Assembly: GCF_013315695.1 (NCBI RefSeq)
Contig: NZ_CP054353.1
Source of the DNA: Escherichia coli
GTDB lineage: Bacteria > Pseudomonadota > Gammaproteobacteria > Enterobacterales > Enterobacteriaceae
Reading direction: 5' to 3' (one strand)
DNA length: 64,000 bases
In this document: one piece after another, positions 51,701 through 54,700 of the stretch
How the letters are laid out: every line of letters begins with the position of its first letter
Position numbering within the stretch: the stretch's first letter is position 1
Made by a program: the position numbers

Positions 51701-54700
51701 GCTGTCATCGGGATATACTCGAACTGGCGGATACGGTAAGTGAGTTACGCCCCGTGAAACATGCGTTTGATGCTGGCGTAAAAGCACAGATAGGGATTGA
51801 TTACTAAGTGAAAGCACCTCAAAAGATTGCCTCTTGAGGTGCTTTAATCATAATTATATTCAAGCGGCAATAGCAAAATTCAGAATGCGTATAATCTCAT
51901 TGAAATGTCTCTGATATGTTTCATGATTCTCAGCGTCAACATCTTCAATAAATAATATCAGTTCAGTAATTAGCGCATTAGCATCGTCATAATTTATCCC
52001 TGCTAACTCTGGCGAAGTTTCAGTACCATAGTTAATCGTCAGGTTGTTCATAACTGTGAGGATATGGATAAAATATTTATGACAAACATTACATGTGGTT
52101 TTATTGCCCAGGGTATTATACAGCATATCAAGTAATGCCAGTATTCTACGATTTTGCACATCGTTCATAAAAAGCCTCCTATAACATTATTCCGCTGGCA
52201 ATAAGTAATTTTGCCAGCCCCTCAGACGCCTTTAACCCACTAATGACCTGTGCGCGCAATATCTCATTTAACCTTTTTTGTTCAGCTGCCGTGCGTGTTT
52301 TATTAACATATAAATTATTCAGATAATCACCCTTATCTATAAAGGCATTTAAAGCCTCAATTGCGGGCATGGCAGGTGCCGATGCCTGTAGCCTGGTTTC
52401 ATTCACATTGATTACTGAACTTAGAAACTCCTTCCTGTTTTTCAGAGTGTTAAACTCTGTATTCTTAGCGTTTTTAGATGCCGTACTATAATAAAACATA
52501 TTATCATGCACATTCGCAAAGGTATAATTTTCAATCTTATTGCTTTTTGTATAAATATCATTACGCAAAACTGTCATGTTCCCTATAAGTCTTACCCAGT
52601 TTTCATCTACCGTTTTGCCTATTTTTCCAGAATTGACTTTTATTATATATAACTCATTGAAATAATTTACCAAATCTTTAACCGCTGCTGCAGATTGTGC
52701 TAAATCTTTGCTATGTGAAATACCAAGTAGTGTTTGTGCGTTATTTGCGTGATCCAGAGCCTGTTTAAGTAATGCCACTTGCTGACTTTCTGTCGTTGCC
52801 ATGTCCTCATTCAGAAGTTCTACATAAGCGCTCATGCTATTAATGACTTCCATTGAAGCCAGTAATTTTTCTTTCTCGAAAGTGACTAATTGTACTTTTT
52901 TTGTATTTGGCCCAGGGCGCTGGCATAATTTTCCGCCATTACCATCACCGCCTATATCTATGGTATAATCAGGTCGCAATGCACAATCCGGATTAGTCGC
53001 ATAAAAATTAACAAGGAAGTTTTCACGAGAAGCATAGTATTGTTTAAAGAAACTTGCATTCGCCGCAACCGCCTTGTTACCCGCAGTAATAACAGTTTCA
53101 GCTTGTTCATTCTTCAATGCTTCGGTTGCACAACCTGAAAGCATTAACAGCGGGTGATGCTGCCAACTTACTGATTTAGTGTATGATGGTGTTTTTGAGG
53201 TGCTCCAGTGGCTTCTGTTTCTATCAGCTGTCCCTCCTGTTCAGCTACTGACGGGGTGGTGCGTAACGGCAAAAGCACCGCCGGACATCAGCGCTATCTC
53301 TGCTCTCACTGCCGTAAAACATGGCAACTGCAGTTCACTTACACCGCTTCTCAACCCGGTACGCACCAGAAAATCATTGATATGGCCATGAATGGCGTTG
53401 GATGCCGGGCAACAGCCCGCATTATGGGCGTTGGCCTCAACACGATTTTACGTCACTTAAAAAACTCAGGCCGCAGTCGGTAACCTCGCGCATACAGCCG
53501 GGCAGTGACGTCATCGTCTGCGCGGAAATGGACGAACAGTGGGGCTATGTCGGGGCTAAATCGCGCCAGCGCTGGCTGTTTTACGCGTATGACAGGCTCC
53601 GGAAGACGGTTGTTGCGCACGTATTCGGTGAACGCACTATGGCGACGCTGGGGCGTCTTATGAGCCTGCTGTCACCCTTTGACGTGGTGATATGGATGAC
53701 GGATGGCTGGCCGCTGTATGAATCCCGCCTGAAGGGAAAGCTGCACGTAATCAGCAAGCGATATACGCAGCGAATTGAGCGGCATAACCTGAATCTGAGG
53801 CAGCACCTGGCACGGCTGGGACGGAAGTCGCTGTCGTTCTCAAAATCGGTGGAGCTGCATGACAAAGTCATCGGGCATTATCTGAACATAAAACACTATC
53901 AATAAGTTGGAGTCATTACCTTAACAGCGATAGAAATATTCCACTATATCTAATCATAACCCACCTCTTGACGTTGAGTTTATCTCAGATAATTAAATAG
54001 TAATGTGGCTATTTCCTGGTAATATTCATAAGCAAGTATGAAATTAAATTAAAATACTGCGACTATTTATCATACTTCAAATGAAGAAAAGGCCCCGCAG
54101 GGCCTTTATTTTATACTTAACTTAAATTAACCGTTATTATTACGTCCGCCAGAACGACGACCGCCGCTCACCTGACTGTGACGTTTCACCGCACGACGAA
54201 TCTGATTCGCCTTCATGCGACGACGGTCTTTTTCTACAGCGACTTTAGAGCTGGTTTCTGGCGGTAGCTCCACCAGTTCGCGCAGATAGTTAGTCTGGGC
54301 GAGGTCCAGCTCCGTCCAGCCACCGCGTGGCAGACCTTTTGGCAGTGGGATATCACCGTAACGAACACGGATCAGGCGGCTCACCTGCACACCAACCGCT
54401 TCCCAAAGACGACGAACTTCACGGTTACGGCCTTCGGTCAGAGTAACGTTGTACCACTGGTTGATCCCTTCGCCGCCGCTGAACTTGATGGTTTTAAAGG
54501 CTGCCGGACCATCTTCCAACTGCACGCCACGACTCAAATCACGCAGTTTCGCGTCGTCAACCTGACCAAATACACGCACGGCATATTCACGTTCAACTTC
54601 ACGGCTTGGGTGCATTAAACGGTTTGCCAGTTCACCATCGGTGGTGAACAGCAGCAGACCACAGGTATTAACGTCCAGGCGCCCCACGGCAATCCAGCGT

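Follow-up and report, generated by a model that had tools for sequence, protein, structure and literature searches.

A two-gene lipoprotein cassette of low GC content at the btuR–rluB junction of Escherichia coli

The cassette and its disruption in the window

The window analysed here is a stretch of 64,000 nucleotides from Escherichia coli (assembly GCF_013315695.1, contig NZ_CP054353.1), and the entity of interest within it is a low-GC cassette of two genes – one for a lipoprotein, the other for a small acidic protein – that lies between btuR (cobO in RefSeq; 51217–51807, plus strand) and rluB (54127–55002, minus strand). The gap between these genes measures 2,319 bp, as the first-pass annotation of the window had estimated (about 2.3 kb). 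That annotation also gave a K-12 spacing of a couple of hundred base pairs: the genes are indeed close neighbours in K-12 MG1655, where they are convergent, but the spacer there is 39 bp. Subtraction of an IS1 element and one copy of its target duplication leaves 1,542 bp, which bears out the AT-rich remainder of about 1.5 kb that had been noticed: GC content is 0.37 over 51808–53152 and 0.31 over 53921–54126, versus 0.51 in btuR, 0.54 in rluB and 0.51 across the whole window. Outside the cassette region the window is ~99% identical to E. coli IAI39. The features of the junction are collected in Table 1.

The insertion has every hallmark of IS1 – a length of 768 bp, terminal inverted repeats of ~23 bp, the insA and insB open reading frames (ORFs) and a 9-bp target duplication – and its counterparts in other genomes are annotated as members of the IS1A family. 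It splits the lipoprotein gene after codon 12, and because the promoter and the start of the gene, with the signal peptide, are thereby cut off from the remainder, the lipoprotein cannot be made or exported: as read from its sequence, the copy in the window is an inactive pseudogene, disrupted by IS1. Removal of the element restores an ORF of 333 codons (53957..53921 joined to 53143..52179, minus strand) that begins with MIRYSGIFLSLLMLSGC followed by ATE, in agreement with the split lipoprotein that had been reconstructed previously, lipobox and Ala at +2 included.

The restored amino terminus comprises an M-I-R n-region, the hydrophobic stretch YSGIFLSLLM and the lipobox L-S-G-C17, with Ala at +2, which is what the sequence of a lipoprotein processed by signal peptidase II (SPase II) and Lgt should contain. 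In E. coli the Lol sorting rule directs lipoproteins with a residue other than Asp at +2 to the outer membrane; the product of the first gene is thus predicted to be a Sec/SPase II lipoprotein of the outer membrane. The mature protein of ~317 residues is basic (pI 8.3). Across 44 homologues at 15–25% identity the only invariant positions are the lipobox cysteine (44/44), C66, C86 and Y119. An AlphaFold 2 (AF2) model built on the deeper of two alignments (predicted local distance difference test, pLDDT, 72; predicted template modelling score 0.68) shows eight long helices, with a beta-hairpin (residues 73–97) between the two cysteines; a model from a shallow alignment (pLDDT 54) was not used. 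The predicted fold of the lipoprotein is therefore an all-helical bundle in which the invariant pair C66...C86 clamps a single beta-hairpin, and the invariant lipobox cysteine, C66 and C86, together with the hairpin between the cysteines, would speak for an extracytoplasmic location.

The second gene follows so closely that the ORFs are 10 nucleotides apart, and the first-pass annotation was right that the lipoprotein gene ends with its TAG stop inside the AGGAGG ribosome-binding site (RBS) of a coupled gene for a signal-less protein of 102 residues. The AGGAGG ends 6 nucleotides before the ATG; the second gene is translationally coupled to the first, and its product is acidic, soluble and probably cytoplasmic. 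C26, C29, H30 and H88 are invariant in the small proteins of the Escherichia/Citrobacter group, in which they may form a Zn site. Three other assignments were discarded. Tat export finds no place for an invariant N-R-R-I-L that lacks a subsequent hydrophobic h-region and is missing from remote partners; a c-type haem site at CxxCH would require an export signal that the protein does not have, and the motif is not kept beyond Escherichia and Citrobacter; and the residues preceding Cys are unsuitable for a cryptic lipobox.

Table 1. Features of the junction between btuR and rluB (positions in the window)
Feature	Position	Strand	Remarks
Hairpin	51811..51845	.	12-bp stem AAAGCACCTCAA/TTGAGGTGCTTT, 11-nucleotide loop; read directly from the sequence
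Small partner gene	51860..52168	-	102 residues, pI 4.8; lacks a signal peptide and transmembrane segments
Coupling signal	52175..52181	-	Lipoprotein TAG stop (52181–52179) overlaps AGGAGG RBS (52180–52175)
Lipoprotein gene, 3′ part	52179..53143	-	End of codon 13 to stop; mature protein including C66...C86 pair and helical body
Target-site duplication, copy 1	53144..53152	.	TTAACAGCG (9 bp); part of the original coding sequence
IS1	53153..53920	+	768 bp; inverted ends GGTGATGCTGCCAACTTACTGAT / ATCAATAAGTTGGAGTCATTACC; insA/insB ORFs on plus strand; antisense to cassette
Target-site duplication, copy 2	53921..53929	.	TTAACAGCG (9 bp, perfect)
Lipoprotein gene, 5′ part	53921..53957	-	Codons 1–12, MIRYSGIFLSLL; detached from remainder by IS1
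AT-rich 5′ region of cassette	53958..54087	-	31% GC; 96–100% identical between E. coli allele classes
Non-coding block	~54025–54070		AATAGTCGCAG...ATTTCATACTTGCTYATGAA; upstream of lipoprotein gene; kept between Escherichia and Citrobacter (alignment)
rluB intrinsic terminator hairpin	54088..54107	.	8-bp stem; found by scan; divides rluB from cassette

The cassette is bounded by hairpins on both sides. That between btuR and the convergent small gene, which the terminator scan overlooked because its loop exceeds 8 nucleotides, is probably a bidirectional terminator and has an analogue in E. albertii; the rluB terminator hairpin is also kept in E. albertii and Citrobacter. The block at 54025–54070, upstream of the lipoprotein gene, is conserved even though Escherichia and Citrobacter coding sequences are only ~58% identical at the nucleotide level, and it may be a promoter or the binding site of a regulator; the scan of the cassette strand in this upstream region returned no strong sigma-70 consensus.

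Distribution and divergence of the alleles

Among 5,426 complete E. coli genomes, with the cassette scored as present when a match covered at least 80% of the query, 4,183 have the K-12-type empty junction and 1,234 (23%) carry the cassette, including ST131, IAI39, SMS-3-5 and CE10. The cassettes are far from uniform: 424 of the 1,234 are at least 90% identical in nucleotide sequence to that of the window (IAI39, SMS-3-5, CE10 and others), while 810 are only ~71–78% identical. The ST131 allele (JJ1886 and others), hereafter type II, was recovered by megablast from 776 complete genomes with a query coverage of 80% or more. Beyond E. coli, the pair is also found between rluB and btuR in E. albertii (64% amino acid identity) and Citrobacter sp. 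ANG330 (52%). Neither edge of the cassette bears a target duplication, direct repeat, att site or remnant, and no similarity was found between the 39-bp spacer of K-12 and either cassette flank. CP054249, which at '32% identity' might have passed for a divergent allele, was set aside as an error-ridden assembly with many frameshifts. A further difference lies close by: yciQ, which encodes a DUF2207 membrane protein (55213–57108 in the window), is missing from the same position – between yciO and rluB – in E. albertii and Citrobacter sp. ANG330.

The striking feature of the cassette is the depth of its divergence within an otherwise uniform backbone. Between the window and ST131, synonymous divergence (dS) is 0.09 in yciK and rluB, ~1.0 in the lipoprotein gene and saturated in the small gene; flanking genes differ among E. 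coli by a dS of 0.02–0.10. Between ST131 and E. albertii the cassette shows a dS of 0.45–0.8 and the flanking core genes 0.6–0.96, while the window allele stands at a dS of 1.0 or more from the allele of either. That the window allele is farther from ST131 than ST131 is from E. albertii suggests that the classes were already distinct before E. coli and E. albertii separated. By these comparisons there are at least three allele classes in E. coli, with saturated synonymous divergence, and the cassette looks like an old resident of the rluB–btuR junction in Escherichia and Citrobacter, where it is kept as a polymorphism of presence and absence whose alleles have diverged deeply.

The claim that the cassette had been inserted horizontally can be judged in this light. 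Its low GC content and its absence from K-12 were borne out, but a recent gain at the level of strains does not fit a cassette carried by 23% of E. coli, by E. albertii and by Citrobacter, without scars and with allele classes of greater age than the flanking core genes; on sequence grounds, 'recent horizontal insertion' should be replaced by an ancient polymorphic accessory locus.

Divergence is unevenly distributed along the cassette. A sliding comparison between classes shows the upstream region and codons 1–66 to be 96–100% identical and codons 67–297 to share 45–75% of nucleotides, with sharp edges between the two. The 3′ half of btuR (51362–51807) is itself only 87–93% identical between strains (dS 0.27–0.46), in contrast to 97–100% for yciK and rluB; this divergence is linked to the adjacent cassette and suggests that recombination breakpoints lie inside btuR. 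The strain GPEC403-625 has a mosaic allele, in which a central region of a third class is followed by 36 final codons and a small gene of window type.

Across alleles and genera the ratio of nonsynonymous to synonymous divergence (dN/dS) is 0.10–0.26 for the lipoprotein gene and 0.09–0.22 for its partner, and values in this range argue that both genes are real and under purifying selection. The proportion of nonsynonymous differences (pN) is highest in residues 67–100, which include the hairpin (0.42; pN/pS ~0.7), and in residues 161–240. Set against this constraint is a record of repeated loss. MS 21-1 carries an IS1 elsewhere in the lipoprotein gene (3707–4474 of locus L002) with a different duplication, AACTTAACA; the IAI39 copy of the gene is frameshifted; the type II alleles of several strains contain IS1, and MSB1_4I carries ISKpn26. 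These independent knock-outs point to a gene that is dispensable and possibly costly.

A sparse family and its conserved partner

A word-indexed search of 5.8 billion proteins placed both proteins in Escherichia and Citrobacter only. An exhaustive search with a hidden Markov model (a 13-sequence alignment versus 1.84 billion representatives) returned 60 proteins, among them full-length lipoproteins of 324–357 residues at 15–25% identity, from Buttiauxella, Raoultella, Klebsiella, Rahnella, Pantoea, Methylomonas and Chlorobiaceae; all are named 'hypothetical'. As delineated by these searches, the lipoprotein family is sparse and extends from Enterobacterales to Methylomonas and Chlorobiaceae. 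The 90%-identity cluster closest to the type II allele comprises 1,421 member sequences. Three matches filed as plasmids, CP054249 among them, proved to be misfiled pieces of chromosome.

Both proteins and ten remote homologues were compared with Pfam, NCBIfam, PHROGs and PADLOC, with nothing beyond noise, and profile searches of the PDB with two alignments gave coiled-coil noise only. The earlier impression that neither protein has a recognisable motif thus extends to every family library searched; moreover, neither has a well-characterised homologue, and the pair is not found in K-12, so that neither of the two observations that the first-pass annotation had said would overturn its account was made. 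Searches of the literature yielded no match for the RefSeq protein accessions or for a lipoprotein at this junction, and the literature on DUF3829 and YiiG was uninformative. By exclusion – nothing known fits – the cassette would appear to be new, in the sense of a family and not of a demonstrated mechanism.

The closest approach to a known family is structural. Beyond its own family, Foldseek comparison with AFDB matched the lipoprotein to models labelled DUF3829, imelysin-like or 'lipoprotein', at a best template modelling (TM) score of 0.75 (E 2e-10); that best model is DUF3829-labelled and 19% identical, other DUF3829 models score 0.26–0.42, and the query itself has a pLDDT of only 72. YiiG (PF12889; 351 residues in E. 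coli, uncharacterised) resembles the window lipoprotein in being enterobacterial, ~330–350 residues long, predicted to be all-helical and endowed with two conserved cysteines; unlike the cassette, yiiG in K-12 has no small gene annotated directly downstream. Homology to DUF3829/YiiG was rejected: PF12889 is matched neither by the query (E ≤ 10) nor by any of the 44 members (E ≤ 0.1), and hhalign comparison with YiiG, alone or as a 25-sequence alignment, gave a probability of 4–5%, confined to the signal peptide or to 31 columns. The relation is thus at most one of fold. Imelysin-like (Peptidase_M75) proteins are similar in size and in their bi-helical-bundle architecture, with AFDB neighbours at TM scores of up to 0.65; this assignment was rejected as well, for 0 of 44 members match the Pfam family, a conserved metal-binding motif was not found, and the PDB fold matches include no imelysin chain.

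What unites the family, besides the lipoprotein, is its partner. In nine of the ten loci examined a gene for a protein of 96–107 residues lies 6–45 nucleotides downstream of the lipoprotein gene, often with the stop codon of the latter inside the RBS of the former. Spacing as close as that in the window, at 6–24 nucleotides, recurs in nine other loci. The pair was seen in E. coli, E. albertii, Citrobacter, Buttiauxella, Raoultella, Pantoea, Methylomonas and a Chlorobiaceae-type contig, and in two unplaced metagenome lineages (L014; L015/L020); in one distant high-GC locus (L013) a membrane protein of 269 residues (2171–2980) stands downstream in place of the small partner. All partners are acidic (pI 4.3–5.0), lack a signal peptide or hydrophobic segment, and share one invariant cysteine after an amino-terminal helix. 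Homology between them could be demonstrated as far as Buttiauxella only (hhalign 87%, E 4e-6); comparison did not establish it for the Raoultella, Pantoea, Methylomonas and Chlorobiaceae types, which are linked by position, size, charge and one cysteine only. Lipoprotein gene and small gene nonetheless form a conserved unit. In the Methylomonas and Chlorobiaceae-type loci (L028, 6719–7960; L026, 6864–7910) the lipoprotein gene is immediately preceded by one for a multi-pass membrane protein that has an amino-terminal signal and an Ig-like/TIG domain; distant branches of the family may have a third component in this protein or in the 269-residue protein of L013.

The cassette is of low GC content everywhere, even amid neighbours of 55–60% GC. 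In Buttiauxella agrestis it forms a 36%-GC insert between the gpS-like (tail-completion) and gpV-like (baseplate) genes of a P2-like prophage of 55–60% GC; in Raoultella it lies on an island with an integrase, AlpA, IS elements, a putative AbiC and HicB; on an unplaced metagenome contig it adjoins a colicin-DNase/immunity pair, IS elements and TacAT; and in Methylomonas it is found near VapBC, Fic and a Y1 transposase. The description of prophage cargo fits the Buttiauxella homologue, whereas the E. coli locus is chromosomal backbone. The Buttiauxella prophage also contains a second low-GC insert (~0.43–0.44; L012, 9026–9613), which lies just ahead of the tail-fibre gene and encodes, on the opposite strand, a protein of the Peptidase_C92 family.

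Elsewhere in the window, between fabI and sapF (20608–28188, minus strand), is an accessory efflux cluster of five genes: a TetR regulator, a periplasmic adaptor, an RND permease of 1,035 residues, an outer-membrane factor and an MFS transporter. Adaptor and permease genes are contiguous here; in IAI39 they are separated by IS629 and a group II intron. The outer-membrane-factor gene (21770–23142, minus strand) has a frameshift near codon 305 that leaves an open frame of 309 residues versus 457 in IAI39, and the efflux system of the window strain is therefore probably without a channel of its own.

Candidate roles at the cell envelope

A central issue is what such a cassette does. Tentatively, and with rather less than even confidence, we infer as the best fit an accessory module that protects the envelope or excludes invaders; the first-pass annotation had already offered exclusion, immunity or defence as a guess, which may be a reasonable one. 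The variation pattern is one reason: a conserved amino terminus followed by divergent codons 67–297 would amount to specificity-type variation. Low GC content, empty sites and neighbours that include a prophage, an integrase, toxin–antitoxin (TA) genes and a putative abortive infection (Abi) gene lend the cassette an accessory or conflict flavour that would likewise count towards exclusion. Under this scheme the lipoprotein would sit in the outer membrane with its conserved amino- and carboxy-terminal helices as a scaffold, while the variable hairpin and the central helices would serve to bind or mask a macromolecule, either incoming or part of the envelope – candidates being a receptor-binding or injection component of a phage, a bacteriocin, or an effector that acts in the periplasm. 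The acidic partner, co-translated and supplied one to one on the cytoplasmic side, might keep the helical precursor competent for export or might be a regulator. There are parallels with Cor (phi80/N15), Llp (T5) and TraT (F), exclusion lipoproteins of the outer membrane that prophages or plasmids encode: the cassette, too, encodes a predicted outer-membrane lipoprotein in an accessory low-GC gene, is polymorphic for presence and absence, and has one remote homologue carried as a prophage moron. It differs from them in having an obligatory cytoplasmic partner and in showing no sequence relation to them (PHROG, Pfam), and the window lipoprotein is three to five times larger than Cor or Llp.

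Several results weigh against an exclusion module. Neither protein matches a defence component in PADLOC-DB v2.0.0, and the ten remote homologues give noise only (E ≥ 0.006); PHROG matches are confined to the signal peptide (E > 0.04), and neither protein has family similarity in Pfam or NCBIfam. A tblastn search of 50,697 phage genomes and scans of IMG/VR with the patterns tried recovered no homologue, and the link to phages therefore depends on the single Buttiauxella prophage. In the Pantoea and Chlorobiaceae-type contigs the pair lies amid ordinary chromosomal genes. No segment of the lipoprotein has a pN/pS above 1. The distribution – B2/F-type lineages and E. albertii – could be purely phylogenetic, and we know of no precedent for a cytoplasmic helper of a Sec-exported lipoprotein. 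A bolder version of the exclusion model, in which the family is an unrecognised and phylogenetically wide two-component envelope system – a disulfide-clamped specificity hairpin on an outer-membrane lipoprotein plus a co-translated cytoplasmic Cys-protein – that excludes phages, bacteriocins or other invaders, and in which ancient alleles and a null persist as a trans-species balanced polymorphism, we regard as unlikely, albeit worth stating.

Exclusion has to be weighed against more familiar roles. The product may instead be an ordinary physiological lipoprotein of the envelope – concerned with stress, metal or ligand binding, or the cell wall, in the manner of YiiG/DUF3829 or imelysin-like proteins – whose polymorphism reflects weak constraint and recombination. 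We hold this to be doubtful, though a serious contender: it would account for the AFDB neighbours, for the non-mobile chromosomal surroundings of some homologues, for purifying selection overall and for a putative regulatory block upstream that is kept across genera. But the likeness to named families fails in sequence, in that neither DUF3829 nor Peptidase_M75 matches a single member of the 44, profile–profile comparison with YiiG yields 4%, and there is no conserved metal-binding motif; and a gene that is missing from 77% of E. coli and most Enterobacteriaceae, is frequently knocked out, is low in GC and keeps company with mobile elements would be unusual for housekeeping. At the other extreme, the view that the cassette is a decaying, functionless relic on its way out of E. 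coli takes up the same losses – the window copy killed by IS1, the frameshift of IAI39, IS insertions in several strains, 77% of genomes without the cassette – and is highly improbable: ORFs have stayed intact in E. coli, E. albertii and Citrobacter, at a dN/dS of 0.1–0.26 despite saturated dS, the pairing is kept across phyla, the 90%-identity cluster closest to type II has 1,421 members, and type II itself is carried by 776 complete genomes.

Two further explanations take the diversity of the lipoprotein as their point of departure, and both seem to us quite improbable. One casts the lipoprotein as a toxic effector, delivered by vesicles or by contact, that the cytoplasmic partner neutralises, as in SitA/SitI of Myxococcus, polymorphic lipoprotein toxin–immunity pairs transferred by outer-membrane exchange. 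Several features would fit: a lipobox protein followed by a small, tightly linked gene without a signal, a large basic product coupled to a small acidic one, a conserved amino terminus with a divergent remainder, a partner that co-diverges in ST131 (65% and 72% amino acid identity), and colicin-DNase/immunity and toxin–antitoxin genes among the neighbours. Yet three cysteines and a tyrosine are all that is invariant, which is neither a catalytic signature nor a toxin domain. In the cassette, unlike SitA/SitI, the variable parts are mutually homologous, and because alleles can be aligned over their full length the variation reflects divergence and not the swapping of toxin domains. In GPEC403-625, moreover, the partner is of the window type although the central region is a third allele, and partner and variable region are thus uncoupled; and E. 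coli, which unlike Myxococcus has no TraAB machinery for outer-membrane exchange, is without a known route of delivery for such a toxin. That IS1-disrupted strains retain the would-be immunity gene is uninformative either way. The other explanation, no likelier, holds that the lipoprotein is a surface antigen or mediates interaction with the host – serum or complement resistance, as with TraT, Bor or Iss – in extra-intestinal lineages, its diversity driven by immune pressure. Its presence in genomes of the ST131, IAI39, CE10 and SMS-3-5 type, its absence from those of the K-12 type and its hypervariable, disulfide-clamped hairpin would suit such a role, but most outer-membrane lipoproteins of E. 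coli face the periplasm, the family reaches environmental Methylomonas and Chlorobiaceae, counts of lineage enrichment ignore phylogeny, and the cytoplasmic partner is left unexplained.

Whichever role applies, envelope protection or exclusion included, the cassette is a widespread, selected orphan, carried by ~23% of complete E. coli genomes – pandemic ST131 among them – and by E. albertii, without a name in any database or a likeness among solved structures. Saturated divergence of its alleles within a core backbone that is 97–99% identical, alongside linked excess divergence in btuR and a common empty allele, makes for unusual population genetics, of a kind typical of loci in conflict with phages, competitors or hosts. 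In mechanistic terms it is puzzling that a lipoprotein destined for export should be paired, across phyla, with a protein of the cytoplasm. With a cassette of 1.4 kb and, in K-12, a natural null background, the question of its function is cheap to address: a phenotype, if found, would mark the cassette out as an envelope module for defence or immunity of a new kind, and even a negative result would supply the first property of an orphan family.

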